Shown here in pieces: positions 9,001-35,345 of a stretch of 64,000 nt of DNA. Source of the DNA: Candidatus Omnitrophota bacterium (GTDB lineage: Bacteria > Omnitrophota > Gorgyraeia > 2-02-FULL-51-18); NCBI GenBank assembly GCA_023247915.1, contig JAHFFN010000002.1, positions 1,202 through 65,201 on the forward strand, given 5' to 3'. How positions within the stretch are numbered: the first letter of the stretch is position 1; the number at the start of each line of letters is the position of its first letter. A program made the position numbers and the translations under genes. The notes beneath the pieces are model-generated. The model searched no databases, was not told the DNA's origin, and saw only the letters and a program-made list of their open reading frames with translations.

Positions 9001-12000
9001 TGGCGGACGGAGCGTCAATTCTCAGGGTAAGAAAGTATGGAAAAGTTGAATATCCCGATGAACCGACTTCGGTCGATATTTTTTATATTTCAGCTGATGG
9101 GTCTGTTAAGCGGCTTGACGGACATAGCGAGGCAGTGGCTCACGATGACAAGGGCAATATCATTAGCCAAAATACCACTCTTTTGTATGACGGTCGCGGT
9201 CAACCGGTGCTGGATCGAAGCGGAAACCAAGCCTCTTTTACTATTTTAGAAACCCATTCTCCGGCCGGGCATCTTTTAAAACAGGAAATTCCCGATAGGG
9301 ACTCCAAAGTTGAAGGTTCGAAAATCGTTCTCAAATCGGATCCTACCCAAGAAGGCAATAAAACTCTCATTGAAGTAAAGTACAAAAACGGACACAAAAC
9401 AGAGAGCAATCGTTTCCATGTCAAAACAGAGAATCAGTGGCCGCATCTCTCCCGGTCTATCCCAAGAGGTTTTAGTAAAGAAGGTTTGGCGATTGTAGAA
9501 GAAATAGAATTTGTTCAAAAGACGGATGCGGCCGGCAATTTAGTGAATCAAGAAGTTTCGCATCGTTTCGATTTCTTTGATTCCATGGGTCTTCTCCGGA
9601 GACAAGAATATCCCGCCGAAGGTGGCAAAAAAGTCACCACGATCGCTTATGCGTTCGGCCGTCGGATTTCCAGTGAACAGAGATTTGTCGCTACGGACGG
9701 TTCCAGTCGTCTTCTTTCTCAAGGACAAACGGAGACTTATGATGTGGACGGAAACGCCATCGTCCAAGCCAAATTTTACGCGGCAGATGAAATCACCGTC
9801 ATTCGAAACGAAAAAGTGCTTTGCGAACCTTCCGGTCGTCAGCATGTGATCACCAAAGCCCGTTTTGACGGGAAACAGGTGGACAGTGTGGTGATGAATG
9901 ACCTTGAAATTGGAGTAGCCGCCCCATCTTATCTCATTAATCTCGACCCTTCTCAGCCTATTGCGGTTGACTATTCAAAAACTGCGGCGAACGTGACGCT
10001 TCTGAGTGAAAGCGAACATGGAAAGTCCCTGCAAATCGATCCTCTAAAAACGGATGGAAATTCAACCGGCAAGATAAAATTTGTTTCCATTGACTCGGAT
10101 GGTGTCTCCGCTCCTCTGACGCCTGTTTTTAAATCCGGCACCAAAGAAATTGATTATTTCACCGGTTCGGTGAATCCTCTTCTTAAAAAGGGAGATACAT
10201 CCCCGGCCAAACGCTGGAATGTCGAAGCTAATCAATTAGAAGGTTCTCCTTTAGCTAATCTTGAAGTTTTTAGAGGATCTGCTGAGACGGGAATGATTCT
10301 AAAAGCCCAGCCTTTAGGAAATACTGAAAATCCCAAAGGCACCCCCAAATTCGATGCTATTGATCTTACGGGCGACCGGACTTCTTTAACGCCGGTTTTT
10401 AAAGCGGGTACCAAGGAGATTGATTATTTCACCGGCGTACCCACGCCGCTTCTTAAGGAGAAAGATAAATCTCAAGCCCAGCGCTGGAATGATGAAACTC
10501 ATCAGTTTGAGGGTCCTGTCTTGAGTAATCTCGAAGTCACCTCAGGATCTGCTTCAGCGGGGATGATTTTAAAAATCCAACCAGTGGATGATAAAAACAA
10601 ACCCAATCAACAAAAAACGCGTGAATTTATTTTTGCGGATGGAAGTTCCTCGCCAGTGATTAAAATTGGCGATTTGTATTTGGTTCAAATCGGCGAACTC
10701 GAATTAAATAAACCCGTAGACATGTACCCAGTAGACGTCAAGACGGCTCATTTGGATCAGACCGTTGTTTTCGCGACAGTCACTCTTTTGGAAAAAAATT
10801 CGGATGGTTCCATGCGGGTGCGTATTCAAGCGACGGACGCCGTAAAAACCGATAATTTTAAAGGCTCGGCTCTTGAAATTTCTCTGACTCCAAAGTACCA
10901 CATCAGTAAAAAAATCAGAGAATGGAGTCGGTACGGGCATTCTTACAAATCCATTGAAGTGAATGATGGAGAAAAATCCGATCTTGTGGGATATGAAGTT
11001 CCTGTTTCTTCCACTTTATTTATTGATGGCAAGGAATACAGTTCCGTTGCATTTCTTGCGCCTATGACTTTAAAACAAGTTTTAGGTAAAGACGGTTTTT
11101 CAGCGATACCAGCAGGCGATAAAAAAGCACTTACGCAGAAGGGGATTAGCGAAGAAACAGCACTGCAACCAGCTGTGACCACCTTAAAAGATAGTCATCT
11201 TTCTTGGACGGATTATCGGATCCCTGGAGATGAAGACGCGAGGATTATTCTTACTCAAAGCTCAAACACCAAGGTTCTTTCAGTGGATTGGGATGAACAG
11301 GGGGATGTCACTCATAGCTATTCTATCGCGGCTGACGGACAAATTGTGGAAGAGGCTTTCGCGAGCGAAAAAATCACTCTAAAGAGTTTCCTTGATCTTT
11401 TTCCAAACACGGAAGAATCCGAGCAGATTAAAAAAGAAGTGACCACCCAATGGGAGAAGCAATTCGGTCTGACTCTTACATCCAAAGTTCCTGTGATTCA
11501 AAAAGCCCCATGGAAAATGATTCAGGATGGCGATGGAAAAATGAAATTTCAGCGGCCGGAATGGATCAGCCGAAATTTAAAATCCATCATGGATAAGACA
11601 GATCTTATCTTTAGGCTTCCTCAAGATCCTTCGAAAACGAGTTTAGGTTTTGTGAATCGTAATCCCAAGACGACTATTTTAGGAGCTACCTCCGAGGATG
11701 GAGACGGGGACATTACCATCAATCGTTTGTGGGTGAAAAATAGAGCTCCTCAAGGAATCGTTCCTGAAAGCGTGACGCTCCTTGGACATGTCAGCCATGC
11801 TCGGGATTCTCAAGTGGTTCGAAAAGTGTTTAGCCGTGAAAATAGTGACAACACAGGAACTATTTATACTATTTCCGGGGATCCTCTAAAAGTCGAAGAA
11901 GAGCGGTTTTTTGACGGGCCGCTTATCCGGGATAGACGTTATCACGTGCCCCATTTTATCGCGGAAATTCCTATGTTTGTCCGGCCAGATCGTCTGGAAG

Positions 12001-15000
12001 ATGTGTTTTATCAGCAAGGGGTTGGCTATGAAAGACCAGCTTATTCCAAGTATCTAGAAATTAAGTCCGATAAAGAGGGAAACGCGGTTTTGGATGCAGA
12101 CGGTCTTCCCATCATTGTCGATAAGGGTTATCCCGTGAAGTTTTGGACTAAAGTCGCTATTTTGGGTGATCCCAATGGAAGATACTATGTTCACGAAGCG
12201 TGGGTTCGGGATCCGATGGTGAAACCCATGCTCTTCGACAAAGGCAAAGTATTCACCCTAGACCTAGGCCGTGGAAAAAAAGAAGAGATTTTAATGCTGG
12301 GTCGTATTCGCCATATACGCTTCTATTTGAATGTAAAAGGAGAATATATGGGTGAGGAAGAGATCGAAGATCCCTTGGCCAGCCCTTGGTATTATGTCGC
12401 CGGTTTTGGCATCTTAATCGTGGCTCTTCTTACTCTTTTTGGATACCACATAAGAAGAAAAGGGCAAGGTATTTTGGACGATTTCCGAAAAAAGGCTTAC
12501 GACAAACTTCCAACTACTAATGGACAGAGTCGATCTGCTTCCACCACTTCCCAAGCAGCGCGTTTATCGGTGAATCGGTATAGCCCGGAGAACGATTTCT
12601 TCCAGAACGTAACTTCCAATTTATCTCAACTTCATGGCCGTATGACGGTTCCCCCCAGTGCCGACCAAAATTATTGGGCTTTCCTAGGGGAACGTAACTT
12701 GACGAGCTTAGCTGAAACCATTTCCCGATGTGAGACGCATATCCGTGACAACGAAGCCAACACGGATCAGACCTTTACCAGCAGAACCATCAACCGGTAC
12801 GAACAGACAATGGACGCTTTGGAAAGTGTCGCGATGACGGTGCAGGTGGCTTTGTACGGCCGGCGTGACCCTAAGGCAGGTTTTGTACGCCGGATGAAAT
12901 TAGGATGGTCTCCGTATCTTTCAGTGAGCGCTTTCACGTTGGATGAGATCACTGCCGAAAAAAGACGTTCCGGTGCTGAAATGAAGTTTTTCCGTGAGTG
13001 GCTCCGTCAATCCGGGTTTAAACATGCCGCTGAAGTCGAAAAAATGATGGAAAAGGATCCTATTCTGGCGATCACACTTTTGAGTGTCGCTGAAGACGAA
13101 GCAGAGAAGCATCTCAGAACTACGGGTCGCAATGCCCGGTATTATCTGGCCTATCAGTATCTTTTTGAGCCTATTCTGGAAAACAAAGTAAAACCTGTTA
13201 AAACTATTGAGGCTTTTGCCAAAAAGCGTGAAGAGATTGCGGTATTTTACGACACCCAGTATGAGTTCTTTACGACACGGCCTTACTATTACACCAAAGA
13301 TAAAAGAATCACGTATGAAGACATTGACGATCGTTTTAAAAATGAAACAGCTATTAATAATTTTTTTAAGGTAGCTGGGGATCGTAAGGAAGGAGCCGCT
13401 TATCTTAAGCAATTAAGAGATAAGGAAAAGCGTTTATTAGATCCTGAGAAAAACCCGGAACTCAAAGAAATGAAACGTCGACAGGAGTTGTTTGAGCGGG
13501 AATCCAAGGACAAAGGCTTCTTTTATAAGTTATTCAAAGGAATCTCCCGCGATAGAGACCCGGTTTTCAAGCGTCGGGTTAAGAAATATTCCGAAGAATT
13601 AGATGCGCTACGAAAAGAAATCGCGACGGTACAGAAACAAATTGTCAAAGGATTGAAACCGACGCTTCCTGGTTTTTCCAATCGCTCTAGATTTGGATTA
13701 GCTTTCTTGGGGGGCGTCGTCGCGGCGCTTACGGTTGGTGGAATGGCGATGTTATACACCGGCACGGCGATTGCTCTTACCATCGGTGGAGTTGCCGCTC
13801 TCGCTACAGCTTTCCTGATTCTTTTGATTACGGCTGTCATGAAGAATATGCCTAAAGACCGTATCGGCCCTGGCTTTTTTGCAAATCTTTGGATGCCAAT
13901 CTCGACTTATGGGTTCTCGGTTTTGGCGATGGTGATCACACCCTTCTTTTTCCACTGGGTGACGAGTTACGTGCTTTTAATGCTTATCTCCATCTCTCTG
14001 AGCATCCTATTTTCTTTTGTCGCGAGAATGATCATGGTGTATCTCAATAAAGTAGAAGTTCAAAGAGGGGTCGGAGAAAATGAAACTCAAGCCAAAGCAG
14101 TAGAAACCCCCGCAGTTTTTTGGCGCTTTTTCCATTGGACTTTTATCTCTTCATTTTTCACCAATTTCTGGCTTGGACTGTGGAATTCTCAAGTTCTTTT
14201 AACATTTTTTAAGGTTGGTACTTTTGGTGCGATCGCTTTCCATTTTACGCCGTTGGCGTTGATGCAAATCATGGTAACAGCCGTGACTCCTTTCGCGGTG
14301 GCTTATGCGGTCATTACCTTGATGTCCTGGGAAGAGGGTAAAAAGAAGGGTGTTGGCCAGGCCGGAACAATTGAAAAAGCCGAAATGCATTTTGAGGAAG
14401 CCAGAGAACATTATCGCAGTCTCTCAAACGAAATGATTCGTTCTGATGTCCCAACGGCAGAAGAAACAGTGCGTTTAGACACTGTTTATAACGCGGTATG
14501 GAATCGGAGTCTTGATTCGATGGTGAGACTTGGTGAAATAAACCAATCTGCCGCCAAATGGTTGAAAGGATGGGCTTTGACGGGTACCGCTTGTACGCTT
14601 GGTACCCCTAGACCGGCCGATGCAAAAATCGAAGAAGAAGCTGAAGAGCGTGTCCAACGCTTTGTCGAGGGTTGGCTGATGAATTTACCTCCAGTTTTAT
14701 GGTGGGAGTATCAGATGCCGGTAGCGTTTATGGGTACGGCATTCAATGAGTCTCTGCATTGGGATCGGAATATTCTCCAATCGGTAGAGAAAGGCGGAGA
14801 AGCTACTAATCTCAATAAATTTATTGAAGAGTACAATCCGGAGTGGAATATTTTTGTGGATGAGTACTTACCCGCTCACCTTTTGGGAAATAGGGTGCTG
14901 ACGGCGGCGGATCGTGCCGCACTCAAGGGATTAAGAGGAAAAAATGGTGTTCCAGATCATTTGTTTGTCCGTGATGATTTGATGATGCTTATCGAAAAAT

Positions 15001-18000
15001 TTGTGAATGATAGAGCTTGGAATGTGGGTCGATCCATCGCGGATCTGGAAAAATGCCGTCAAGGCTGGGTGGATATCGCGAGTGTGATGTTTTATGACGC
15101 CACCCCAGCTCAGATCGATCAACTCGTTGATACGCGAGTTCAACTCTTTATGAATTATGAAGGCTATAATTTTGCCGCCAAACCGGAAGATAGAAAAAAT
15201 ATGGATCGCGTGTTAAGAGAGAATCCTCACGTCGAAGCTTGGTGGGACAACAAAGTGTATCGGGGAGGGGTCACGGATTCTTTTGTGGTGGCAACGACTG
15301 GTGGGTTAAAAGTAGAAGGCAAGCACTTGCCTGGAGGTAAGACTCCTGGTCAGGGAGGCGCTTTACCCGCTATTTGGGGCAGCCAGCTTTTTATTACGGA
15401 CGCGAATGTCTCTTATGACGCCGAAGAAGTTTTTAGAATGCCCTATGCTTTTACCGGAATCAGTGAATTTAATCTAGACAGTGTCGATTATATTTTATTC
15501 GGTGAAAAAATATTTCCGAAAAAGTTTTCATTGCCAGGATGGGGTTATGCTTCCGCGGACGAAGCTTGGACGGGTCCAGTCCAGCGCTTTTTGGGAATGA
15601 TGCTCTCCGTTTTCTTCTATGGGCACAATGCCGTGACTTACCGCGCTTTATTCCAGGGAGTTAACGGCGCTCCCCATGATTATCCCAGCGAAGACATTAT
15701 CTTTGGTTTGATGCTGTGGCTTCTTGGGTATAAAACCAGCCACGAGGAAACCGTGCGAGCTGGTAAATCCAGACCGACCTCGACCATAGGTAATAACGCT
15801 CCTTACGGAAAATATCCTGCCGGTGCGGCGGATTTGGCACGCATCCTAGGGAAGGTTTTGCGCAGTAAACAATTTTCATTGGGTCAGAAACTTCTCCTTA
15901 TTTTCACACTAGCCTTTTATTTTAGAAAAATATTGGTAGTGGGAATTCTTTACACAATTCTTAATTGGGTTGTGTATGCCGGTATCAGCGGCTATGTCGC
16001 ATTTCCTTGGCTTTTAGCGTTAGGGATTCTTGGACTTTTAGTCAGCCAAGCCATCACGACTCAAGGTTGGATGAGCTTGGTTGAAAAATACGGCCGCGCG
16101 AGAGGAACGCTCAAATACATTTATTATGCGCCGATTAATTATTATCTTTTTGTCGGTTACATCATTGTTTATGCCGTTAGTTTTATTATTGGTCTTCTGG
16201 GCTTTGCTAAATTTCCAATTACTCAAAAAATTCTCGATACCGGCTGGATAAAATTTGATGAAATTTATAAAAGAGTTGAAGCGAAGGCTTATGGCGCCAG
16301 ACTGGCGTCCAATAAATTTTCAGGGCTGGTTCGTCAATGGTTGGGACTGACACCCGACTGGCGTTATGATCTCAAGGACAAAACTCTCTATGAATCAAGG
16401 CTAATTTTGTGGTCGACAGTGGTGGGGGCGATTATTTCTACCATACTCATTATCATGCCGGATTCGCTGGCGCATGGCGTGGATTTAAAAACATGGCTAT
16501 GGGCTGTTCCTCAGTATGGTTTGCCGATGATCGCCGCTTTTTGTACTTGGGTGACTGTCCGTGTAGACCATGTACGGGAGAAAAAAGTTCTCCGTGTATT
16601 TCAAGAGCTATTTCCTGAAGATCTTTCCAAGATTTCCAGAGAAAAACTATCCATTCTTTTCAACATCTCTCTTTTGCCACCCATTTTTGGGAGCATTTTC
16701 ATCTGGAGATCGGCTGGGCTCTTGTGGTCTGCTTTTTATATGGGTGTTCCATTCGCTTCTCTCTACGCTCTCATCTATGCCCAACCTATTTTAGATTTAA
16801 AAATCATGAAGTATCGTGTGCCCAAGCTCGCGATTCTTGGATTGATCGGCGGTACGGCCGCTATTTTGACTTCAATCAGTGCCTGGGGGCTTTTAACAGC
16901 TTGGTTGATTGCGGTAGTGTATGTTGAGATTATTTACAAACCGCTAAGAAAATATGTGCTTCCTTTTGGGACTCCCGAGTTTGAGCAAAAGATGAAACAA
17001 ACACTTTTGACTGACCGGAAACTCGAAGAGGGCATGGAACCTTTTCGCCAGGTCTATGCTTTTTCAAAAGAAATTGCCGCCATGGAAACAGATTTAGGTT
17101 CGGATAATGCCAAATCCGCTGAACTGGCTTCTCTTGAAAAATCACATTTGCTTTTAAGATCTTCTGAAGAACTAGCTTCGATCGCAAGTGATCGCGGCGT
17201 CGCTTTGAATCAACTGAAGCCTAGTGATAAGTACCGGACGGCTCCCGAGGCGATCACAGCATTTTCAGAGTCTATCGATCTCAGGACGGCTTTAGCACAA
17301 AAATCGACGGCGGATCGGGAAAGAATCGTCCATCTAGTTCAAAGACATTTTGACATTGATTTAAGAAATGCGCTTAAACCTGAAGAGCTCGATGTTCTTG
17401 CGCACACCGGTTTATTTTATGATCGTGAAGGGCGTCTGAGGACAGCCTCTGAAATACTCGACGCGTTTGATCAGTTATTGAATACGATGCAAATTCTACC
17501 GAGAGCCGTGAATGAACTTGGCGAGGCGAAATCGAGCCAGGTGAAAAAATTCCTTTTAGGCGCTCTGGGAATCGATCTGGAGCATTTAAAGCCGGAAGAT
17601 ATTGGCAAAATAGTTTCCACCGGCATTTGTTATGACCCCCAGGATCCCAATCCAAGAGACCCACAACTTCTTTCCAGCCACACCATCGCGGATCGTCTGC
17701 ATCAAGCCATTAGTTTCTCCGAAGCGCTTTCCGCAAAGCCAAACCAAACTCAAATCCGCGCTTTTGTGATAGATCTTTTTGAAAGAAACGGTGAAGACGG
17801 TATTGACCTGTCTAAAGAAGATCTCAGCGCTGAAAAATCCGCGCAGCTTTTTGAAAAAGGGTTTATGACGGACAGCCTGGGCCATCTCAGAACAGCCGGC
17901 CAAATGATTGATTTTGTAGATAGTTTATCTCGATTTGATGGAGAAGTGGCCGCTCTTCCTGAAAAAGATCGCGATAAGGTAAAAGATTTTATGAAAAATG

Positions 18001-21000
18001 TGTTCAAAATAGAAATCAAGGGAGACGTCAAAAAAGATTGGCCGTTTCCGGCAATTATCGCCTACAGCCATGCCGAACTTTTCATCAATACGGATGGAAG
18101 TTTCATTCCTTCAACCGCATTTGTCAATCGCTTGAAAGGCCTCTCCATTTTGTATGACGAAATTGATTCTCATACCAACGGCAAGATGGTAATGGATCTT
18201 TTCAAGACAGGTGTGAAGCTTAATCATGGACGTTATCTATTTGATGAGCATGGACAGTTGCGTACCGTGGAAGACTTGCTGGATCAGGTCAATGAATATT
18301 TTATTAAGCAAATGCCGGTGGCTATCAAATCACATCCGGATCCGAAGCTTATTAATAATTATGCGGCAGGATTTTTTGGTGACAAGAAGGCCAAGGGACA
18401 AAGCTTAGCCGATGAAAATGTGACCTCGGCAGGTGTCAGCGCTCTCAATAGTGAAGATATTCTTTTAGATGAAGACGGACGTTTTCGCGCGCCTTCGGAA
18501 ATCGTGGATCTTTTATACGAAAAAGCAGTCGCAAAAGAATTGGCGCCTAAATTAAAGGTGGCGGTCAGCCGCCACGCGGAACGAGAAGAGTTGGTGCCTG
18601 CCTTCCAAGACGTATTGGGAATCAAGGTTAATTCAGGTATGACCGCCGACGCAGTGCTTGTTTTAGCTTCAAATCCTGATTATCAAAGTCGTTTGCAAAA
18701 TCATTTAGGCTCTGTTGTAGGACAAGTGCTTCGGAGTGATGTGCCGGCGCTCTGTTTTGCGGATCCGGAGCCGGGCATGGGTGGTGGCGCTGCTATCGGA
18801 CATGCGCTTAGCCGTTTTGACAATGAGTTGAGTTCTTTGGCGATTCGTTATCCGCATCTGGCAGGTCGAAAGCTTGAAGATTTGAATCTAGTGATCATTG
18901 ATGCTCGAGAAGAAATGCCGCATTTTTCCGGCACTCTCATCGAAGGAGCTGGGGCTCTCATGCCTTTGCCGGTGCCTCTTAAGAATGGAAATCCAGCCAG
19001 AATCATCGATCTTCAACTCCAGACAGCTTATATGTATACGCGTACGATTGAGCATCTTGGTCAAAGAGGCGGGCTTGTGGTTATGAGAGGGGATGAGTTC
19101 AAGATTTCTGAACCAAAATTAAAAGAAGGTGTGAATTATATTTCACAATCTCCTGATCCTCAAGAACCCATTAGCGCTACGATTACTTTTTCCAACCCTT
19201 CAAAATATGGGCATTTCTTAGGTGGTCTCATGGATTTGGATGCTAGATCTAATCTCAGACACACTAGTTTTTATGATTTTTGTCAAGAAAGTGGCCGCCA
19301 TGGCACACCCATTCGTTCTCTTGAAACAGCCGAAAATCGTTCTTTTGCTATTCGTTGGGATAGCAATGCTACTTGGTTTGACGGCATCCAAAAGAAACCT
19401 TGGGACAGTCGAGTCGCGATGAAAGTGCTTGGCAGAAAATCTTTAATGGCCAGCACCAGTAACAAGACAGCACTATTATCCGAAAATGTAATGCTTCTAG
19501 CTTCATTGATAGGGCGCAATAACCGCATTGGCGCTAATTCTGCTATTTGGTACTCAGCGCTCGATTCTTCATCTATTATCGGGTCTTCTTCCGTGCTTTA
19601 CCGTGTCCGCGGCAAGGTGGATATGTCTTATCAAGGTCGTGTGTTGGAAAATGTATTTTTGGGTTTTGCTCCGGTGTGGGATAGAGAATCAGGGGATGTC
19701 CGCTCGGCGGTAATTTTTTCAGGTTTAAGAGATGTATTGCCCTCTCATCAACCCGTCGCCTCTGCTGATGCTTTAATTTTTGGAAAGCCTTATTCCGATA
19801 TCATTGCTCGTGGTGGCATGCAAGTGGATCCGGCGGTATCGAGTGACGATGTAGAGATGTGGCCGATGATTGACGCAGGACAATTCCATACGGATCTCAT
19901 CAAGTGGATGGCTACCGGAGAAAGTGCTCCTCAAGCCTACCGTCAGGCCAAGAAAGTTTCTTTAAATCAAATCAGAGCCGGCCTTCCCTCGGTTGAACCT
20001 AACACCCCGAGGAACGCTCCATGGGGATCTCAGATGGGTCTTTTGTTCTGGAAGCAAGGTTTGATCGGAACCCACAAGGTCTATGCTTGGGGGCTTTATT
20101 CGCAAGCGGTCGAAAAAGACTCCAAGACACAGGCGGCTCGTTTAGCTTCTAAAGAAACACCTCAACTGATACAGGTAAGTGTGGAAGGCGGAGTTCCAAA
20201 ATTGGAAGGCAATATGATTGGCGTGGCAAGTCTTTCCCCGGATATTCGTAGCAGTATTTACGGAAGAAATTTGCATGAAGATCTGGACGGAGACCCTCGC
20301 TACGGTGAAAGATTGGATGGTAGTGTTCCTATGGAAAGAGTTTCCCTTAGTAACGTAATTTTGGAAGTGAATCTATTGGATGGCGGTCTCGGCCTTAACG
20401 TTGGTCGAAAATTATATCTTATTAAAACAAGAAAAATAACCGATAGAAACGAAGGTGCTAAAGGGACGGATCTGGGTCGGCATGTCGATGTCACAGTGAT
20501 TGATCAAGATACAAACGAAGAAATAGAAATTAAAGATGTGTTTGTCAGTTTTGCCGAAATTAAACTACTAAACGCGATCGCTCGCATGGAAGAAAATAAA
20601 TACGCGGGACTTGTTTACAACGCGTTGGTGAGCGCTGAATCAATCGGTTCTTACCAAGATCTTTTTGAAACTGACATTTATATTTTGGACAGAGTGAACC
20701 CTAGTATTCCTGCAGATCAAAAAAGAACCTATGCGCAAATTGTCAAAGAAATGAAAGCGCGTGGACTTGATTTCAAAATGGCGGATCCTGAGGTGGAAAT
20801 AGCAATCCCCACTCGAAATTTTACTACCGGTGACTTAAGTGTGGATGTCACAGGTCCCGGAGGACATGGCCGCGCCGGTTTGGATTTGGTTGTGGGACCC
20901 TATTTCGATAATTCGTTGATGGCAGATTGGAATAGAGGGCTGACCCACATAGCTCTTTTTAACAACGGGGATGGTGTAATGAATACTACCGATGACGTGA

Positions 21001-24000
21001 CTATCCGGTGGATGATAGACCAAAACATCCCCGTGGTGATGGGAACCACCGAAAAGACAGACATGGATCGCAAGGGAGGCAATTTAGGACTTCAGGTTGA
21101 TTTTGATGCCGTGAAAAGTCTTTTAGAGCAGACAGAGACTCCGCTGGATCCTCATGATCGTGCTATCTTGACAAATCTTTTGCAGACAAAAAACCTGGAA
21201 GCGCTTATTGAAATGGATAGTTTAAAAGAACAGCATGTGCGATTTAAAATTACCAATCTTGCGATTCTTCGTCAAATACTGATTCCTCAAATTGAGGAAT
21301 TGGCACAAGCCAGACTCGGCGGTCCGGATCAAATGAAAACTTTCCAAAGCTACGGACTTCCGGGAGGGCAAGGTGAGGTAAGACAGCAGGATTTTAATAC
21401 GAACAATGTGGGGGTAAATAAAACACTTTTACACCGGTATATGAAGGAACTAGTTGCGCGTGGAATCGTAACAGAAGAAGAGCTTTTCAAAATCATCAGT
21501 CCTGACATGATGGCCAAGGATCCTAAATTTGCCAATGGCAATTGGTATGGCATTCTTGAGGGCGCCATGGGATCCACTCTCTTGGCGTTTGGAAAATGGG
21601 TCGCCCAAAACCGGAAAGCTCAAGCGCTTTTGAAAGAAATGTTCGGGGTGGATCACTTGATCTACAAAAATTTCTACCGATCGAATACCAGTCACCCTAG
21701 ATTAAAAGAGCTGATGGCGCAAGGATGGAAGATTTATACCCGCGCCGATATTTTTACGCCTACCAAAGGATCGACGGATCATACGATTCAGACGGAATTG
21801 TTGGATTTCTTTAGTTTTGACACCAAACGATGGATATTAAAGGCCAATCAACCGGATCGTGATCCGCCCTTCATGGAAATTCCGGGACAGTTGTCGCCTT
21901 TCACCACAGCCGCGGATGAGTATCTTTCTGAAGTCGAGAATGTGGCCACGATTTTAAGAGGGTGCGGCATTCAATTTTTACGCCGCTTAGCCTATACCGG
22001 TGCCGGGATCGCTTGTGTGGCAGGCAGTCTTTTAGAAGGGGATGTGGAAATTTATATCACCAAAGAAACTAAGGATCCGGTGACTCCGGTTGATTTAACG
22101 GGACTGCCCTATAGAAATCAATTGCCTCAGGACGCCGATGGCCGCATTCATTTAAAAAATATTTTTGTGCGTGTGGATAAATATGGAGTCTTGACCTGGA
22201 TGCCGATTTTTGCTGAGCGTTTACAAAGAATCACAAAATCAAAATGGTTTCAGATGAACGCGAAAGATTGGCCCCAAGACATTCAAGCATTGTTTGATTC
22301 TAATAATCCCCAAGCGGTTGTCGGTTTAGCTGAGGCGATGAAAAGTAAATTTAGCGAGCTCAAAAAAACATCCACTCCTCCTACGGAAATACAAAAAGCT
22401 TACGACGAGATGGAGCATTTTCTCGCCTTGTTTGATTCGACCAGTAGCACCGGTGCGCGTCTTACAGAACCTTATTCAGATACAAAAATTATTGAAACGT
22501 TTAGGCGGCAATCAGAGGAAACAGCCGCTCTGCTTCCGGGTATTCTTACGGCTAAGAAGGCAGTGGAAGAAGCAACTAAGCTAGCAACTCCGATTTCTCC
22601 GGAAATAGTGGCTCAGGCGGCGCAAAAGACGCCCCTTCGGTATTCTTTTTATAGTGTTCCTAACAGAAGACATCCTCGAGGGATTTTTTCTCTTCAGGAA
22701 AATCCTGAGCGAGCCGGCAGAAGACCTTCTCAGTATGCGGGGGCAGGTACTTTCCAACCTTTCAACCCTAGTGGTTTCCATTATGGCAAGATTCCTCCTC
22801 ATGAACTGGTGTATGAAACCAAAGTTGAAGGTGTCCAGGCTAGCATTGTGACTAATGTGAGCCCCTTCGGCGAATCACACTTTTTGGTGGTTCCGGACAG
22901 ACAGAAAAATCTTCCTCAATATTTAGACGACCAAAGATACATCAGGCTTGCGTTGGGTATCCTCAAGAAAACCGAACGTGCCAATTTAAAATTTGGATTT
23001 AACAGCTTTGGAGGATTTGGATCCATTAATAATTTCCACTTGCAAGGTTTCTTCTATGGGGGCGATGGAGCTGACCCTGTTCAGTGGCAAAATCACGGGC
23101 GGTTACCGGTGGAAATGACAGGTCGTACACCCATCTATAACGAAAATGGAGTGGTTGTCTCAAAAGTTGCGAACTACCCCGCCAACGCACTGGCGTTTAG
23201 TTCGAAGAATATAGAGGCTCTTTCAGAGAAAATCATGCAATACATCACTATTTTAAATCAAAGTGATTTTGAGGAGGGTGGCGTTGTCAAGAAAGGTATT
23301 CCTTATAATATTTTATTCACCGACAACGAGGTGATAGTGATGCCCCGTCATTATGAATTTTCCAATGAATTTGGCGGCGGAACAGCGGTTTTAGAAATGT
23401 CCGGAGAGTTCATTATTACGGATCCGGCCATTATGGATAAGATTCAAGAAAAAAATATTTGGGATGAATTAGCAAGAACCACTATTCCTAAGGAACGGTT
23501 TGATCAAACAGTGGAGCAATGGCTTTTAGGTGTTAAAGGTAAAGGAGCAAGATTAGCCTCGAATACCTCGCGTGAGGAGATGCATCATATGCTTCAACGA
23601 GGACTCAAAAAATCAATGGAATCAATTAAAAAATCGGCGTGGGAAGAATTAGAAAAACCGGGCGCCACCCCTTCTAATGATGTGCTTATTATCACGGCTT
23701 CTACTGAAGCTCAAGCAGAACTTTATCGTAGACATGTGGAGTCCGTGCGCGGACTTTCGATTAGAAAAGACCAAGTGGTTTTGGTCATGGCAGATCCTTT
23801 AGATGAAGCTAAAAAAGGTCAACGGATTGGAAACGCGAGAGCTGTCAGCTATTCCTTGAGTGTTCTTTCGGATAGATGGTCTGATCTTCAAAGAGACAAC
23901 CCGCCTTTAAGAAATGTAGATTTTAATAAAGCCGTGATTACCATTATCCCCGCCGGCGGTCTTTCCTCCAGGTTTCCTTTGGGACTTCAGGCCGGATCAA

Positions 24001-27000
24001 AAATGCTTACAAAACTACCTATTTTCTTGCCTTTTGTCGGTCGGGTTTCAGAGAAAAAGAAAGCCGCCACTCTTTTTGATTTAGCGCTTCTATTTGGATA
24101 CCGGTTTGCTCAGAAACTGCGAAGTGAGGGGCGTGCAGGAATTGTGCATTTGGCCTCCGATTCGATTCTTATAACACCGGAACCTGTTATTTATAATGGC
24201 GTTACGATGTATGTAGCCCCTGGTACCGTGGAAGGCGCAGAAAGCCGTTTGGGTGTCACTTATGCGGATCCTGAAACTCGACTCGCTCGTATTTTTTACG
24301 AAAAACCAAATCAAGGAGAGATGGAAAAAGATGTGATCTTGAATAGTAGCCATACACTCAAAGAAAGACATCTAAGGCAACTTCGAGTTAATTCGGCGAC
24401 ATGGGTTTGGAGCCAAGAAGACGCAGAGCAACATCGGGTATATATTGAGGCGCTTAAAAATTTTGAAGAGTTTATTCAAGATCGGAAAAAAAGAGGAATT
24501 CCTGTATTTGAGGTAGATATTTCTCGTGAGTTTTTTACCCCACTCACGGCCAATTTGGAAGAATATTTACGCAGAAAAGGGGCTCTTACCGCCCCCCAAA
24601 AAGATTTTTACACGGATGTGTATGCTTATGTCACAAAAAATTTCCCTCCAAAAATTTATATCCCTCATTTTGACCCGCTTGAATCTTTTTATGAGGATTT
24701 GGGAACTCCGAAGCATTTCTGGAGCGTTGTCATGGCGGGTAATCATGTCAGACTTCCAGTGGAAGATGTTTTGGCAAGCGTACTCGGCTTGGAATCTTCC
24801 ACGAATGCCCAGATGGCTGTAACGGCTCGGAGAACTCGAGGAAGAGTCATTGATTCGATTGTAGGCGAAGACGCTGTGTTGGGTTCGAACTCTATTGTTA
24901 TAGACAGCACGCTTCTTGACAACTCGAATGTGGGTAAGGGCGCTATCGTTATAGGGTTAAAAAAGGCTCGCGTCAGCACTAACAATAATACGCTTTTAAT
25001 TCAGGTTCCCGTCGCTTATTTGGGTAAAAAAGATATGTCGGCATTTATTTATGCCGGCCGCGAGATTTTGACGGGTGTGATCAGTGATAAACATACCACG
25101 CTATTCCATCGCCAGGCCAAAGCATTGATCGCTAGCTGGACGGATCCTAGCGGAAATTCCTTAATGAAAACATTGCATATAGATGGTTATGACGATTGGT
25201 CACTTTTAGATTTGCCTATTTGGCCTGTGGCAGAAGTTTTCAATACAAGACTTATCAATTGGATGAATACCAGCAGAGAAGCTACTATGGAATATATCAA
25301 TGCCCCCAAAGTTTCCTTAAGAGAGATACTCAGCACTGTTGATTTTAATCGTATCGGTCAGGCATCTTCACAAGCTGCCAGACTATCATCCGAAAATTTC
25401 ACTAACTTTGTTCCGGATCTTTTGTATGGAAAGCGAATAGTTTTTGACGCGGGTACCCGTGAATTTCAATTTAAAATTACAAGAGATCTATTTGAAAAAA
25501 TTCAATCTCTGGGGGGCGGAACAGTTTACATTTCTTATCTCAATCCAAAAGGTGTTAAAAATTGGGTCGAAAAAGAGATTCAAACAATTCAATTAATCGA
25601 CGACGTTTATAAAATAGCATTGCCGGAAGGCGTAAACGATTTTACTTTATGTGTTAAAGCGGGCACTCAAGAATTTTGGCTTGAGCATAATATTCGAGCA
25701 GTTACAAGAGATCAATTGGTGTCGATTGGCCAAACCCCGTTCGAAGGACTTGAGTTTGAGGGCGCGAATATAGCAATAAGCCAAAAAGATCAGCAAATAA
25801 CTTTACCCGCAGACAGAGTACTCCGAGTGATTGCAAAGTTTGGTCGCAACCCGAAAACCGGTGAAAAGGGATTCCAAGATCCGGACAGAAATATCCAGGT
25901 TATTTTACACTATTTTGATCGTGGCTTAAAAACTTGGCGTAATTCACCCACGGTATTTGTAAGACAAACTTCCGGGCAGTATTACTTTGATGCTACGGTG
26001 CCGGAGAGCGCTGAACAAATAACCTTTGCTGTCTCTCCTTACGGTCGCATCATTAGCGCCACTGATTCTGACTCCGATCATGACAAATGGTTAGGGACAA
26101 ATTTGACGGTTGTCCAGCAGGCGGGAGCTCGCCTTTCCCAAGAAGAAACCATCCAACGAATCAAAGCTTCCGGGGCGGGAATTCTTACGGGGAATCAGGC
26201 TCAAGCATTTTCAAATACCGAATTCCTGGTGGCTACGAATAATTTGGCTGCTGTGGAGTCGTTGGATGTCGCGGCGCCGGTGAAACCCGTGTTTGCGTTA
26301 AATTTTGACGATATGTCCGTTTCCAATTTAAATCTGGATACAATTTTCGCGACCACGAGACTTTCTGACCTGACAATTCAAAGAATGTTGAAGAAGAAGC
26401 CGGAACTTGTTATTTTCCAGAAAGTGCCCGCTGTGAGTGCAACTAACGCAAACAAAGCCGACATTTTAAATCAAATTCAGACACAAATTAATCAAGCTCG
26501 TGCGGCTGGAGCCAAGGGAGTCAATCTCACTTATCAAATCTCAGTTCAAGAGCTCAAAGAGATCGCCGATAGAAATAAAGACATGCTGATCGCTGTGACC
26601 GGGGTGTCCGAGCGGGAGCTCCCGCTTGTCTATAGAATCGCTGAAAACGTGATTCCTTTTGTGACACCGGGATCCGTTGAGATGCTTCAAGAATTGTCCC
26701 CTTTGGAAAATATCGAAACAGTTTTGCGGAGAGAACTGTCCCATATTGATATTTTCGGAACCGCTTTCCTGTACGAACAAGGCATTACCCATCATTTGAT
26801 TGATTTCAAAAAACGATCCAACATGAGAGCTTGGTCGGCAGAAAAACTCGACGCAGACCCGGACGGCAGAACTCTGGAAAAGAAGATTAAGATTGTTACT
26901 ATTGAAGCATTTCGTTATGAGATTCTAATTCAATCAGAATACAACGATAAGATTTTTAAAGGGTATAAAGTCGATATTTTTCCTTACGATGCCTTAAGTC

Positions 27001-29117
27001 TGACCAGCCTCACCGGCAGAAAATCAATTTATTCCATGACCGTGCCCTTTGTCCCGGTGGACAACCCTCTTCCGCTTCATCTATCGGAAGCGATTCAACA
27101 CATCCGGAATAACCCCACCAACCCGGAACAAGCCGTCAAAGATCTGATCAGTTTATCGACAGGCGAGGCTAGACAAGTGTTTACCAATGGTTCTTTGCCG
27201 GCGATCATTGGTTTTATTGCGTTTGTGTCACCCAAATCACTCAGCAAAATCCGAAATTGGAATCCAGAAATCGTCGATTATTTACAAACACAAATAAACC
27301 TTGAAGATTTGATAGAGGTGTTTGTTCAGGGCAAAATAACCTCTTATCAGACAACCAAGCCCAACACCGGCATTGCGCTATCCCGTAATCTGCCGGACGG
27401 AAGAAAAGTATTTGGGGTGTTTAATTTTGCTCCTCAAAATGATCAAATTGTGGATGGAAAAGCTTGGTTTGAGGTGTTGCAGACACCCGAGCAATTACTT
27501 CCTCAAGGCCAAGAATTGATAGCACATAAGACCTACAATTGGGTCGAAGGCAAGTTTTATGACTCTTTTCATACATTTGAGAGCTTAAGGCAAAATCGCT
27601 GGCGCATTGGAGTTCCCGTGGAATTGATGACGGGCGAGAGACCTTGGCATTTCCAATGGCTTGAATTCAGACCCGCTCCTACAAATGGAGCCGCCGCCCG
27701 TCTTGCAGGCTTGGGTAATCTGGTAGCAGGCGTTGTTGGAATTTCCATTCTTCTTGGGGAGTGGGTGGCAGAACAATTAGCCAAGCAAACTCAAAAAGTG
27801 ACTGCCCAGAAAACTCAGCCCACGGTTGAGATACAAACGGCGCCCATTCAACAGATTTCAAAAATTGTGGTGGGGATTGTTCAGAAAGAAGGAATGCCTT
27901 TTGAACACCAGGAACACACCATTACCCAATGGCTCAGAGACCCCATGAATCATAGCGAAGAGTTTGCCGAGCAATTTCAGTTTGTTCGTGTTGACGATAC
28001 GGATGCGGCGAAGCGGGCATTTGTGGAACAACATCAAAACGCGCTGGCGGTTGTGCAGATTAATGTGCCGGCTAGTGAGGAAAACAGAGGTGAAATCCTC
28101 GAGCTTTTGATGAAAGCTTTTAGTGCTCGCCAAGAAAAATTAACCAGACAGTTGGCTCAGGCGGACGTTGTTTTGAAATTTTTAAGCGAAAACATTCAAA
28201 ATCCTAAGCATCATCTTCCAATCAGCATTTTACGTTCAGAGCTTCTGGCGTTATCTCGTCAATTCCCAGAACCACGTCCTTATCGTCAGGTTTATAACCA
28301 TGGAATTGTGTTGGTGAATGGTTCTTCTGAAGTGAAAGTGAGAGCTTCCGCTGAAAACGTCGCCCGTTCCATTAGCGGAGGGTTAACTGCTTCGGACGAA
28401 ACCGAAGCGCTTTCAACCATTCTTTCTGTGACGGAACAGATCGCCGATCAGGCTCAGTCGGGTGTTGGCGGCGCCAAAGGCCAGGGAAGTGAATGGATCG
28501 TTAAATTAATTAAATCCGTTCGTTCTGAGATTGAAAGAATGACCTCTGAATTTGCGGCTCCTGCGAATGGCGGCGTGTACACCTTGGTCACGCACGATAG
28601 CTTGTTTGCCGATGGCGCTAACTATGCCAAAGAAATCAAACGCTTTAAAGATGAAATTAAAGCCAAGCAAGATCGTGGGCAACTTCGAAATGTGACATTC
28701 CGCCACGTGCTCTTAATCACCGATGCGGATAAAGCCTATCTTTCCGGGAAGCTCCAAGGTCAATTTGATGAGGTAGTGATGGCTATTGGAGTGACCGATG
28801 TTGCTGAAATCCGCCAACATTACGGCACGATGCTGGGTAATCATTTTGTGATTGAGTCCGCTTCCGGTTCTCATGGTTTAACGATCGAAGCGTCCGATAA
28901 ACAAGCAGTGATAATCCAGCTTAAAGCCGGTGCCTCGTCTTACAAGATGCATAATGCCACCGCCGCGATTGCCTTGAAACCGAATGCGCAAGAGATTCAT
29001 TTCCCAGGTCTTTCAGGATCGGGCAATAGCTTTATATTCGAAGGTATTTTCACAAGAATCATGGAGTTGGTACGAAAGGCGCAGGACAACCTGACGACGG
29101 TTGGAAGCTCGGCCTAA
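24..29117 (+). CDS. giant multidomain envelope-spanning protein (9,697 aa); proposed trans-envelope glycan synthesis/export protein
   Basis: A single frame runs 29,094 nt with no stop. Every other-frame ORF inside it is under 240 aa and looks like an antisense or low-complexity shadow. Recognisable family motifs occur in this frame along its whole length (see sub-features). The start is GTG at 24 or ATG at 30. Codons 3-23 (GAA GCT AAG CTA AGA CAT TAT) contain no in-frame stop, so the true start could lie upstream of the window. Confidence 0.9.
   Translation: [9697 protein letters not shown]
36..110 (+). other. N-terminal signal-anchor helix of the giant protein with TonB/TolA-like S-x3-H-x6-L signature
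   Basis: The translation reads [29 protein letters not shown], a short basic N-terminus followed by a hydrophobic helix. S14 (nt 63-65), H18 (75-77) and L25 (96-98) match three of the four positions of the SHLS motif of TonB/TolA anchors; the fourth position is Leu29. Confidence 0.5.
1080..1580 (+). repeat. Ala/Glu/Lys-rich low-complexity helical tract (TolA domain II-like) inside the giant CDS; a second tract lies at ~2210-2650
   Basis: The translation reads [65 protein letters not shown]...[15 protein letters not shown]/AAR codon periodicity also generates spurious Ala/Ser-rich antisense ORFs (1079-1522, 1092-1319, 1338-1544). Confidence 0.7.
3260..7080 (+). other. array of roughly six TolC / outer-membrane efflux protein (OEP)-like repeats inside the giant CDS
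   Basis: Successive ~170-240-aa segments each show a short beta-like Gly/aromatic stretch followed by long heptad-like helices typical of OEP repeats. Examples are [31 protein letters not shown]...[42 protein letters not shown] and [44 protein letters not shown]...IKERFGL. Approximate segment starts are nt 3260, 3900, 4380, 5090, 5630 and 6340. Counted by eye only. Confidence 0.5.
10068..10607 (+). repeat. 2 x 270-nt (90-aa) in-frame tandem repeat inside the giant CDS
   Basis: Unit 1 (10068-10337) reads [83 protein letters not shown]. Unit 2 (10338-10607) reads [83 protein letters not shown]. The period is exactly 270 nt. Confidence 0.85.
12387..12446 (+). other. second transmembrane helix of the giant protein (return to the cytoplasm)
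   Basis: [20 protein letters not shown] is followed immediately by HIRRKGQ (positive-inside rule). No convincing hydrophobic helix is seen between aa ~90 and this point. Confidence 0.7.
13690..16230 (+). other. polytopic GT48 (FKS1 / callose synthase)-like glucan synthase module: TM cluster, ~500-aa cytoplasmic catalytic region, TM cluster
   Basis: The TM clusters lie at ~13690-14330 and ~15880-16230. The central region carries [36 protein letters not shown] (15328-15445), [13 protein letters not shown] (from 15614), PSEDIIFG (15687-15707) and GKSRPTS (~15763). These are collinear with the remembered GT48 blocks [37 protein letters not shown] / [12 protein letters not shown] / LSEDIFAG / GKGRDVG. 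The comparison is from memory, not computed. Confidence 0.5.
17180..18540 (+). repeat. six to seven degenerate ~70-90-aa protein repeats inside the giant CDS
   Basis: The recurring core is D-x-x-G-x-[LF]-R-[TA]-x-x-[EQ]-[IL]-[ILV]-D. Instances are [57 protein letters not shown] and [19 protein letters not shown]. Weaker copies are [37 protein letters not shown] and [18 protein letters not shown]. Confidence 0.55.
18700..19700 (+). other. fucokinase-N-type NDP-sugar pyrophosphorylase-like domain 1 (degenerate) with left-handed beta-helix tail
   Basis: [18 protein letters not shown] resembles the DP..riGSGGATLnAL block, and [11 protein letters not shown] resembles the vwV.stD.ll block. A hexapeptide-like run follows: [32 protein letters not shown]. 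The glycine-rich GG.s.R.P block is not conserved ([11 protein letters not shown]). Confidence 0.45.
20330..21700 (+). other. UDPGP-family UTP-sugar-1-phosphate uridylyltransferase (UGPase-like) domain
   Basis: [11 protein letters not shown] (20375-20405) matches the LNGGLGTSMG block. [13 protein letters not shown] matches P.[18 protein letters not shown] matches fvsN.DNLga.vD. [14 protein letters not shown] (21049-21090) matches t.Kt.aD.KGG. Confidence 0.6.
22640..23500 (+). other. GDP-L-galactose / GDP-D-glucose phosphorylase (VTC2/GDPGP1)-like HIT-superfamily domain
   Basis: [23 protein letters not shown] (22851-22900) and [21 protein letters not shown] (22995-23057) are collinear with the remembered VTC2 blocks INVSPIEYGHVLLIP....LPQ and GYNSLGAFATINHLHFQAYY. 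The first His of H-x-H-x-Q is Asn here; the second (nucleophile) His is retained. Confidence 0.65.
23680..24990 (+). other. fucokinase-N-type GDP-sugar pyrophosphorylase-like domain 2 with left-handed beta-helix tail
   Basis: Matching blocks are [21 protein letters not shown]...VVLVMADP...[38 protein letters not shown] and [11 protein letters not shown]. A hexapeptide-like run follows: [39 protein letters not shown]. Confidence 0.6.
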
Positions 29118-34220: not shown

Positions 34221-35345
34221 ATGAATAACTCTAAGCCGCCCAAAATCCTGGAGTTAACAACTCACCTAAATGTAGGCGGTATCTCGACTTATATCTTCGA
34301 GTCGGCCGCGGAACTTCAAAAAAATGGTTTTGAGATTTGTGTTTTGTCGGCGGGCGGAGAGTTGGAGGGGCTTTTTGCCGAACATGGGATTCGAACCGTT
34401 TCTTTTCCATTTAGAACAAAAAGCATTTTAAGCCCGCGTCTTTGGAGCTGTTTTCCAAAGATTTTAAAATTTGTCCGGGAAGAAAAATTTGATTGTATAC
34501 ACGCGCATACGCGTGTGACTCAAGTGCTCGCTCATTTTTTATCGTTTCTTTCAGGTGTCCCGTATGTGAGCACTTCGCATGGGTTTTATCGCCGCCGCTT
34601 CGGAAGGAAAATTTTCCCCTCCTGGGGTCGTCGCGTGATCGCGATTAGTTCCCTAGTGGCCGAAGAGCTTGAGAAGACGCATGAGGTAGCCCATTCAAAA
34701 ATACGGGTCATTTTTAACGGACTCAATGTCGCTGGCCGCCGGAAAAAAATATTAGAACAAAATCCTTCGGAGATTCGTCGGAAACTTGGGATTCCTGAAA
34801 ATAGTTTTGTGATCGGGTCCATTTCAAGGCTTGTTGAGGATAAAGGTCACCGTTATTTGGTGGAAGCGGTGGGAAAGCTCAAGAAAAAATTTCCCCAAGT
34901 ATTTCTTTTGATTGTAGGGGAGGGCCGCGAAAAAGCGGCTCTCGAACGTTTAGCCAAAAAGGCGGGACTTGAAAAGCAATCGCTTTTTATCGCGTCCGCG
35001 GTGGATATTTCAGAGTTTTTGTCCGTGATGGACGTATTTGTGCATCCAGCGACTTTTCGTGAGGGCTTTGGTTTGGCGATGCTTGAGGCGATGATCGCGA
35101 AAGTGCCTGTCATTGCGACGAATATCTGGTCTATCAATACCATTTTAAGAGACCGGATTAACGGTTTTCTCGTGGAGCCAAAAAATGCGTCAGCCATTGA
35201 AGAAGCACTGCGTTTTGTGATCCAAACTCCGGAAATGGCCGGGGAGGTTGCGCAAAATGCCTATGAGTTGGCCGCCCAAAATTATTCTGTTGAGCGGATG
35301 GCCAGGGAGATGGGAACAGTTTACAAAGAAGTGATAAGAAAATGA
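34221..35345 (+). CDS. GT4-family (GT-B) glycosyltransferase
   Basis: 374 aa with the E-x7-E region HPATFREGFGLAMLEAMIAKVPVIATN, typical of group 1 glycosyltransferases. Confidence 0.9.
   Translation: MNNSKPPKILELTTHLNVGGISTYIFESAAELQKNGFEICVLSAGGELEGLFAEHGIRTVSFPFRTKSILSPRLWSCFPKILKFVREEKFDCIHAHTRVTQVLAHFLSFLSGVPYVSTSHGFYRRRFGRKIFPSWGRRVIAISSLVAEELEKTHEVAHSKIRVIFNGLNVAGRRKKILEQNPSEIRRKLGIPENSFVIGSISRLVEDKGHRYLVEAVGKLKKKFPQVFLLIVGEGREKAALERLAKKAGLEKQSLFIASAVDISEFLSVMDVFVHPATFREGFGLAMLEAMIAKVPVIATNIWSINTILRDRINGFLVEPKNASAIEEALRFVIQTPEMAGEVAQNAYELAAQNYSVERMAREMGTVYKEVIRK

Follow-up and report, generated by a model that had tools for sequence, protein, structure and literature searches.

Giant proteins in Omnitrophota-like bacteria might each work as one chain or be cleaved into many products, a question that is still open. 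We analysed a giant open reading frame (ORF) from a Candidatus Omnitrophota bacterium (GenBank assembly GCA_023247915.1, contig JAHFFN010000002.1) within a stretch of 64,000 nucleotides (nt), here called the window. The ORF gives 9,697 amino acids (aa) from its first in-frame start (GTG, nt 24) or 9,704 aa from the edge of the window, and its full product is 11,114 aa long according to the gene call on the source contig, a metagenome contig of 75.5 kb (ENA ERZ27296333). Our domain and protease searches cover the 9,697 aa within the window. An earlier sequence-only reading had noted eight copies of a short peptide, [GA]ARL[AST], at the module boundaries of this protein. All eight were recovered in the frame of the giant ORF, beginning where that reading had put them:

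3 to 29117, + strand: giant ORF, frame open at the window's 5' edge
12555 to 12569, + strand: motif copy 1, AARLS (TSQAARLSVN), 43 aa past the transmembrane helix at aa 4118-4136
16293 to 16307, + strand: motif copy 2, GARLA (AYGARLASNK), within a loop of about 65 aa separating transmembrane helices
20133 to 20147, + strand: motif copy 3, AARLA (KTQAARLASKE)
22452 to 22466, + strand: motif copy 4, GARLT (SSTGARLTEP), aligned with KASSAGE of the relative P0001, which stands ahead of the same module
23544 to 23558, + strand: motif copy 5, GARLA (KGKGARLASNT), in a low-confidence flank of our structure model (model residues 50-52)
25374 to 25388, + strand: motif copy 6, AARLS (SSQAARLSSEN), in a low-confidence flank of the same model (residues 660-662)
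26124 to 26138, + strand: motif copy 7, GARLS (QQAGARLSQEE)
27693 to 27707, + strand: motif copy 8, AARLA (NGAAARLAGLG), abutting the transmembrane helix at aa 9227-9245 (nt 27702-27758)

The original observation is sound and robust and reaches far past the window; the reading of the motif as a mark of module joints is supported. Numbered by the A of ARL, the copies lie at aa 4179, 5425, 6705, 7478, 7842, 8452, 8702 and 9225. The composition of the protein predicts 0.14 copies against the eight seen (Poisson P = 2.6e-12), and none of 2000 global and 2000 local shuffles (100-aa blocks) contained more than three. To allow for the post hoc choice of pattern, we scanned about 288,000 patterns composed of a residue class, an exact 3-mer and a second residue class. 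Small-ARL-small came top of them all in the giant protein, with nine occurrences against 0.43 expected (p = 8.5e-10). None of 300 local shuffles yielded a pattern as extreme (best 5.6e-8, median 2e-4). The claim that the motif is far above chance is therefore borne out by the formal enrichment test, including the shuffling that the sequence-only reading had called for.

The conserved pattern is wider than the pentapeptide. A weight matrix of 14 positions gave the eight sites 26-32 bits, whereas no other position exceeded 8 bits, and under leave-one-out the sites ranked 8-10. The consensus reads [ST]x[QG][AG]-ARL-[AS][SQ][NKE]. From copy 1 to copy 8 the two residues preceding ARL are QA, YG, QA, TG, KG, QA, AG and AA, and the residue that follows is A, S or T in all eight. 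No other real ORF of the window contains [GA]ARL[AST], the two further matches both lying in non-coding frames, and the sole small-flanked ARL match in the N-terminal 4178 aa of the giant protein is TARLA at aa 1349, in a coiled-coil-like context.

The copies had also been said to occupy the cytoplasmic half only. This is plausible, with a topology predicted from the positive-inside rule. A hydropathy scan found at least 15 hydrophobic segments, which supports membrane anchoring, and the hydrophobic helices cluster at about aa 4118-5632, with a single further one at 9227-9245. Stretches rich in K/R follow transmembrane helices near the sites at 4179 and 5425. The helix at aa 4118-4136 presumably divides a large N-terminal region, outside the cytoplasm, from the part that bears the motif:

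12375 to 12431, + strand: transmembrane helix, aa 4118-4136, from the hydropathy scan, with a K/R-rich stretch after it

The motif copies delimit pieces whose sizes (1246, 1280, 773, 364, 610, 250, 523 and 473 aa) are as the sequence-only reading had given them:

12558 to 16295, + strand: piece 1, 1246 aa, GT48-like membrane glycosyltransferase, with a block of homology to P0001 at aa 4700-5402 (nt 14121-16229)
16296 to 20135, + strand: piece 2, 1280 aa, a transmembrane block, an unannotated stretch and fucose-pyrophosphorylase-like domain 1 (about aa 6194-6704)
20136 to 22454, + strand: piece 3, 773 aa, with a weak UDPGP-like match under the Pfam cut-off
22455 to 23546, + strand: piece 4, 364 aa, resembling HIT-family / GDP-L-galactose phosphorylase (DUF4922) proteins, core at aa 7594-7831
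23547 to 25376, + strand: piece 5, 610 aa, GDP-fucose-pyrophosphorylase-like enzyme by Pfam and predicted fold
25377 to 26126, + strand: piece 6, 250 aa, with a non-significant CBM53 hint only
26127 to 27695, + strand: piece 7, 523 aa, function unassigned
27696 to 29114, + strand: piece 8, 473 aa, a transmembrane helix and a C-terminal domain with homology to the C-terminal end of P0016; the genes downstream of P0016 match those that follow the giant ORF

The module labels proposed earlier were roughly right, and most of them are weak. The second fucose-pyrophosphorylase-like domain is solid (Pfam 3.3e-15), and its predicted fold matches FKP (9iis) at E = 1e-16. The GT48 label is indirect: it rests on a match of 25% identity over 763 aa to P0001, which has PF02364, and piece 1 gave no Pfam match of its own and no significant match in a PDB sequence search. 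The UDPGP, HIT/ATP_transf and VIT1 matches all fall under the Pfam cut-offs. For piece 7, the PDB sequence search was without a significant match, and a single-sequence AlphaFold model, at a predicted local distance difference test (pLDDT) score of 37, was unusable.

Two weak look-alikes of the motif occur within the 1280-aa piece. One, KS-AEL-AS at aa 5699 (17118-17126), lies just past the transmembrane block and scores 8 bits; the other, KG-QSL-AD at aa 6126 (18399-18407), is upstream of pyrophosphorylase-like domain 1 and scores 3.6 bits. Both could be decayed junction sites.

The homologues place the motif at the edges of whole proteins. A word-indexed search with the C-terminal 4,997 aa returned one distant match, P0001 (6,585 aa), and an exhaustive HMMER search gave 468 protein matches to aa 7380-8559, including many multi-modular ones of 1,000-6,500 aa. 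Within this query, ARL stands at positions 99, 463 and 1073; HIT-like matches span from about 150-170 to 420-455, and pyrophosphorylase-like matches from about 480-500 to 1057-1073. The 610-aa piece has a full-length counterpart in P0030, a free-standing protein of 582 aa that matches it from one end to the other and stops at the next ARL; the 364-aa piece has full-length counterparts in HIT-like proteins of about 340 aa, likewise free-standing. We modelled aa 7793-8492 with AlphaFold from a 13-sequence alignment. Both ARL copies in the model lie in segments of pLDDT below 50, on either side of a confident core (block means mostly 60-94) that corresponds to the GDP-fucose pyrophosphorylase part of FKP (9iis). 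The matching free-standing proteins and the two low-confidence flanks support the description of the motif as a peptide-level element at module junctions. Across 16 proteins, a homology block ended no more than 5 aa away from 21 of 79 motif sites, compared with 9.4 expected (P = 2e-4). A test of sites inside versus outside conserved blocks did not discriminate, as the blocks of multi-module relatives cross the joints, and the distance to block ends was used in its place.

Direct orthologues on which to align all eight sites were not found in genome and metagenome contig scans with aa 6705-8451. A metagenome scan with the P0014/P0015 alignment found nothing, and a search with the C-terminal half of P0014 gave unrelated HD-domain proteins only. 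The same motif was, however, present in other large proteins. We counted [GA]ARL[AST] as a pre-specified pattern in the long HMMER matches; three had several copies, and nearly all the others had none:

P0014, 3,825 aa: 8 copies (GARLA), 0.11 expected
P0015, 1,393 aa: 4 copies, 0.03 expected
P0016, 3,546 aa: 2 copies, 0.10 expected

A 1,453-aa ORF beside P0014 (contig of GCA_050731015.1, 57% GC) holds two more copies. P0152, a partial protein that NCBI labels Candidatus Omnitrophota and that is 78% identical to P0015 over the shared stretch, holds five, and its DUF4922/HIT module has GARLA on either side, at 576 and 947. The pyrophosphorylase-like module begins exactly at GARLA in P0014 and is bounded by GARLA at 220 and 747 in P0015. 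The recurrence of G-A-R-L-[AS] at module borders in five other large proteins is new here. The motif-bearing organisms are at 46, 52 and 57% GC, and their motif codons differ. Conservation in homologues, on which the sequence-only reading had made its proposal depend, thus holds as GARL[AS] in P0014, its neighbour, P0015, P0152 and P0016, and fails elsewhere, where the motif is absent or replaced: it is conserved within one lineage, replaced in others and absent from many.

In the giant ORF the conservation is at the level of the peptide. Codons vary among the eight copies, as had been claimed from the letters, and those for Arg and Leu are used freely. Pairs of copies share a codon in 20 of 84 cases, compared with 19.3 expected from the codon usage of the gene (P = 0.43). 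As codon sharing equals this expectation, selection acts on the peptide, and the motif is not a DNA repeat. Nor are the copies remnants of duplicated modules, since a BLASTP self-comparison of the giant protein detected no internal repeats.

Other lineages carry private motifs of their own:

P0085: GGVIGAMSER, 7 copies
P0052: RASASG, 6 copies
P0053: DPAA[IV]G, 6 copies
P0054: PPARSATVD, 4 copies
P0124: DAAMLG, 4 copies
P0038: SSPVE, 4 copies
P0005 and P0033: SSP[ILV], 3-5 copies
P0003 and P0006: GLE[EQ], 4-5 copies
P0001: K[AS]SS[AS]G, 4 copies

The unbiased test used for the giant protein, when run on 54 long relatives, was clearly significant for eight. Seven of these have a junction-type motif, whereas the hit in P0072 is due to a simple tandem repeat; for several others the result is no more than suggestive. 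The private motifs occupy equivalent positions. The N-terminal border of the pyrophosphorylase module carries GARLA in P0014 and P0015, SSPI in P0005 and GLEQ in P0003 and P0006. Its C-terminal border, at which motif copy 6 shares an alignment position with GARLA of P0015 and SSPI of P0005, reads SVD-FNRIGQASSQAARLS in the giant ORF, SVDQGARLAE in P0015 and NIDYRGVNSSPIT in P0005, agreeing within about ten residues among the three. Ahead of the HIT-like module, KASSAGE of P0001 is aligned with STGARLTE. P0005, P0033, P0053 and P0124 have a common N-terminal module (about 50% identity) and a C-terminal 'GGIDLN' module, with variable enzyme cargo between them. In each of the four a private motif stands at the border of both terminal modules, yet it differs among them.

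These terminal modules, neither of which has a Pfam match, are also found in P0002, P0010 and the loci L009 and L011. The N-terminal one consists of a signal peptide and about 360 aa with 'LPxPGxMV', and the C-terminal one is 80-110 aa long with 'GGIDLNxxxLDLQIxRDGNGxPLP'.

At the DNA level some of these lineages differ from the giant ORF, in that the private motif is kept as DNA in loci L011, L012 and L002 and weakly in L009. The conservation there is confined to the motif's 11-15 nt, with GC-rich third positions in AT-rich genes:

L011, 11545 to 18520: motif DNA GACCCCGCGGCG, same-codon pairs 50 of 60, 20.6 expected
L012, 6315 to 12095: motif DNA TCGGCGAGCGG, same-codon pairs 56 of 90, 20.6 expected
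L002, 6457 to 15810: motif DNA GGCGCCCGGCT, same-codon pairs 77 of 140, 42.9 expected (P = 4e-4)
L009, 11192 to 22345: motif DNA GACGCGGCGATG, weak nucleotide-level conservation

Behind the identity in L011, L012 and L002 there could be a recent replacement of every joint in concert, a part played in recombination or a role of the mRNA. Such identity does not explain the present ORF, in which synonymous positions are randomised and the amino acids invariant.

The giant ORF encodes a membrane-anchored chain of enzymes (GT48-like, pyrophosphorylase-like, HIT-like and unassigned modules), apparently fused from once independent proteins, and [GA]ARL[AST] marks the fusion joints on what is probably the cytoplasmic side. 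A motif that is uniform within an organism and different between lineages points to recognition by a lineage-specific trans-acting factor with drifting specificity. The same uniformity excludes a passive linker, because copies would not then be identical within the organism and different between lineages. We propose that a lineage-specific endoprotease recognises and cuts the motif, which would split the precursor into its component proteins, so that in effect an operon would be expressed as one polyprotein. The cut would fall before Ala ([GA]/ARL, a slash marking the bond) or after Leu (ARL/[AST]), because other positions would expose destabilising N-terminal residues; N-terminal Arg or Leu destabilises bacterial proteins. 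Since the pieces equal whole proteins and the sites are flexible and probably face the cytoplasm, polyprotein processing is the simplest reading. We consider processing of a polyprotein by a cytoplasmic endoprotease the most likely explanation, with a probability of roughly 45%; the single trans-acting reader, its nature as a protease and the cleavage itself are the parts of it that we infer.

Several findings weigh against this proposal. P0029 and P0032, which at 57-59% identity come closest to the HIT module, do without ARL at the joint, which reads DSAMLG in P0032. The giant gene of locus L013 (GCA_016180585.1), a distant relative that has a homologous C-terminal module and ExbB-ExbD-TPR genes downstream as here, retains no more than three in-frame copies of GARL[AST] over 6,900 aa or more. 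Many relatives have no recurrent motif, among them five loci from named genomes labelled Omnitrophota (as are L007 and L008), Planctomycetales and Deltaproteobacteria, all five inside ORFs of 1,700-4,300 aa; because so many family members do without one, fusion without such sites is evidently viable. One motif copy of P0006 stands ten residues from the predicted end of the protein, an odd place for cleavage unless the ORF is truncated. The low pLDDT of the flanks may in part reflect thin alignment coverage there. Finally, lenient Pfam searches of all pieces (E up to 0.01 over the whole ORF part, up to 1 over unassigned pieces) found no protease domain in the 9,697 aa, much of which carries no annotation, and Pfam found no protease among the other genes of the window and nothing consistent in the contexts of five relatives. 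The co-occurring protease that the sequence-only reading had suggested looking for was thus missing from the part of the ORF within the window and from the neighbourhoods examined.

The peptide could instead be a short linear docking or recognition motif that stays uncleaved, each joint showing the same peptide to a common partner. The partner might be a hub domain of the giant protein, a chaperone, a modifying enzyme or a membrane scaffold, and the tethered enzymes would be organised or regulated with the chain intact. The evidence for recognition in trans (uniformity in the organism, differences between lineages, flexible flanks) fits this equally well, and so do the negative protease searches. 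The motif shows a short helical tendency in the model (H50-54, H649-665), a frequent trait of helical docking motifs. In addition, copy 8, abutting a transmembrane helix, and the P0006 copy near the C-terminus are awkwardly placed for cleavage. On the other hand, no candidate partner was identified, and an extra assumption is needed to put a docking motif exactly at every joint and nowhere else. Release explains more simply why the pieces coincide end to end with free-standing proteins. Moreover, rapid turnover of a site in all joints at once is typical of the co-evolution of viral proteases and their sites in polyproteins. Of the two readings offered with the original observation, protease site or linker/docking peptide, the passive linker has therefore gone, while the data leave cleavage and docking undecided; we regard docking as the rather less likely of these.

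At the DNA level, the motif could come from a short junction, translated in frame, that serves the insertion or shuffling of modules or is a remnant of it, such as the core of a site-specific recombination site or a target-site duplication; the one constraint on it would be that the encoded linker is tolerated. Module content and order do vary strongly among relatives, and P0005, P0033, P0053 and P0124 carry variable cargo between conserved terminal modules, with a motif at every border. The nucleotide conservation of 11-15 nt in L011, L012 and L002 keeps this explanation alive for those lineages. In the giant ORF, however, codon choice varies across the eight copies as freely as the usage of the gene permits and the amino acids are invariant, which disfavours both a functional DNA site and a neutral scar, because the former would keep its DNA and the latter would lose its amino acids too. 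GARLA is also kept with different codons over genomes of 46-57% GC, and no recombinase, inverted-repeat structure or conservation of flanks was seen at the sites. We find a recombination origin improbable here. Chance or local composition, by which linkers rich in small residues would yield ARL repeatedly, draws on flanks that are indeed rich in S, T, Q, G and A and on a count of 12 for ARL by itself against 4.3 expected. It is refuted by the local-composition shuffles, which never exceeded three copies, by the family-wise test (0/300) and by the replication of the motif in independent proteins.

Other routes to separate products were considered and rejected. Signal-peptidase, lipobox, rhomboid, self-cleaving Asp-Pro and 2A-like readings fail as most sites have no preceding transmembrane helix, Cys or required residues, and such features are common to none of the relatives' private motifs. 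Internal translation starts were dismissed as the motif DNA has no constant start codon or sequence resembling a ribosome-binding site. As a side observation, Cys is nearly absent from the giant protein (11 in 9,697 aa, 0.1%).

Separately, locus L011 holds a gene for a retropepsin-like aspartic protease of 133 aa (PF13650 / PF13975; 7661-8062, - strand), 1.5 kb upstream of the P0053 gene. It was seen once and not near other relatives.

Returning to processing by a protease, our own reading of the patterns is that many motifs across lineages run small-A-x-aliphatic, with a small or acidic residue next (GARL/A, DAAML/G, DPAAI/G, GAM/S, SATV/D). The cut might therefore come after an aliphatic residue; exceptions are RASASG, KASSAG and KDGG. 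It is possible, and we put it forward tentatively, that Omnitrophota-like bacteria express sets of enzymes as chromosomal polyproteins that a lineage-specific endoprotease cuts at a private peptide, with peptide and protease specificity replaced together in every giant protein of a genome. The peptides concerned would be GARL[AS] here and SSPI, GLEE, DAAMLG, DPAAIG, RASASG and GGVIGAMSER elsewhere, and the DNA identity of the motif in some lineages would be the trace of a recent concerted replacement.

In mechanism, viral polyproteins and MARTX-type toxins come nearest. Viral polyproteins are cut by a virus-specific protease at a short conserved site, as by picornavirus 3C or potyvirus NIa. 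The giant ORF resembles them in holding several complete proteins, in showing at each joint the same lineage-specific peptide, at positions common to homologues, and in placing these conserved sites in flexible stretches between domains. Unlike them, it lies on a cellular chromosome among housekeeping neighbours, no protease module was found in cis, some pieces are membrane-embedded, and cleavage, which is known in viruses, is here a proposal. Large clostridial toxins, and likewise MARTX toxins, contain their own C80 cysteine protease domain, which cuts after Leu in the linkers between effectors. These too are very large bacterial proteins with several enzyme modules, and Leu followed by a small residue is compatible, but no more than compatible, with ARL/[AST]. 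Differences are that the sites here would be on the cytoplasmic side of the producer and not in a target cell, and that the private motifs of several relatives have no Leu; no Peptidase_C80 (PF11713) match was found in the ORF part within the window, and RTX repeats were not seen.

Processing by a C39 double-glycine peptidase has been proposed for Omnitrophota giant proteins (West-Roberts et al. 2023). The Gly or Ala right before ARL could precede such a cut, and one relative's motif is KDGG. However, Gly does not occur two residues ahead of ARL, where A, Y, T or K stand besides the Q of the QA pairs, and the ORF part within the window has no match to a C39 peptidase domain. Because their defining protease domains were not found, we file the giant protein in neither the MARTX nor the C39 family.

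The giant protein does fit the class of 'multi-enzyme metabolic cluster' proteins, class 1 of the Omnitrophota giants in one preprint (Nielsen & Lui 2026) and also treated in another (West-Roberts et al. 2023). Like these it exceeds 10,000 aa, is membrane-anchored, has many distinct enzyme domains in one chain, with sugar-metabolism and HIT content, and is unique in sequence with few close relatives. Its distinct enzyme modules (GT48-like, two fucose-pyrophosphorylase-like, UDPGP-like, HIT-like) are several, and none dominates by copy number. Relatives with the same motif are labelled Omnitrophota, other relatives also Planctomycetales and Deltaproteobacteria, and no placeable taxonomic marker was seen in the window. 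What differs is that the two preprints, in the text that could be searched, give domain catalogues and topology and do not mention junction peptides, and we found no account of junction motifs of this kind in the searchable literature.

The cleavage points of giant Omnitrophota proteins are described as unknown, and cleavage is raised as an open question, in West-Roberts et al. (2023), where the lack of known cut points is also said to prevent even piecewise structure prediction. The junction peptides are the first concrete candidate points for the cutting or recognition of such proteins, and they name explicit positions at which this protein, and a dozen or more relatives, may be cut. A simple computational rule follows as well: search for a recurrent private peptide where homology blocks end. 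It could be applied to the thousands of catalogued giant proteins. If cleavage is true, polyprotein processing would be a cellular strategy of gene expression in bacteria, and giant ORFs could be annotated as sets of proteins. So far, to our knowledge, the strategy has been described for viruses and a small number of toxins. Should cleavage be refuted, the motifs would still mark a lineage-specific recognition system acting on many enzymes together.

The genes downstream of the giant ORF begin with a cluster found in the same order after the giant gene of L013:

29319 to 32418, + strand: ExbB, ExbD and TPR genes

Further downstream are genes for a VWA protein, a GT4 glycosyltransferase, haem synthesis and other housekeeping functions, and because of these housekeeping-type genes we assign the locus to a cellular chromosome. 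In a single ORF of 652 aa (35342-37300), HemD (uroporphyrinogen-III synthase) and HemE (uroporphyrinogen decarboxylase) are fused.

In L013 the giant gene (65-20643) is spread over three long ORFs in three frames with overlaps of about 250 nt, which looks like two frameshifts in one giant gene, either assembly errors or real. The middle ORF repeats a linker-like sequence, '(K/E)IASRH(E/K)E(G/D)GQA(P/S)SARND', at 8706-9305 and about 9380-9480, and one of its copies directly precedes GARLA. P0009 (5,641 aa, locus L007) starts and ends with the same peptide, MRNLAASLGS, which suggests an ORF wrapping round a repeated contig end, or a tandem copy.

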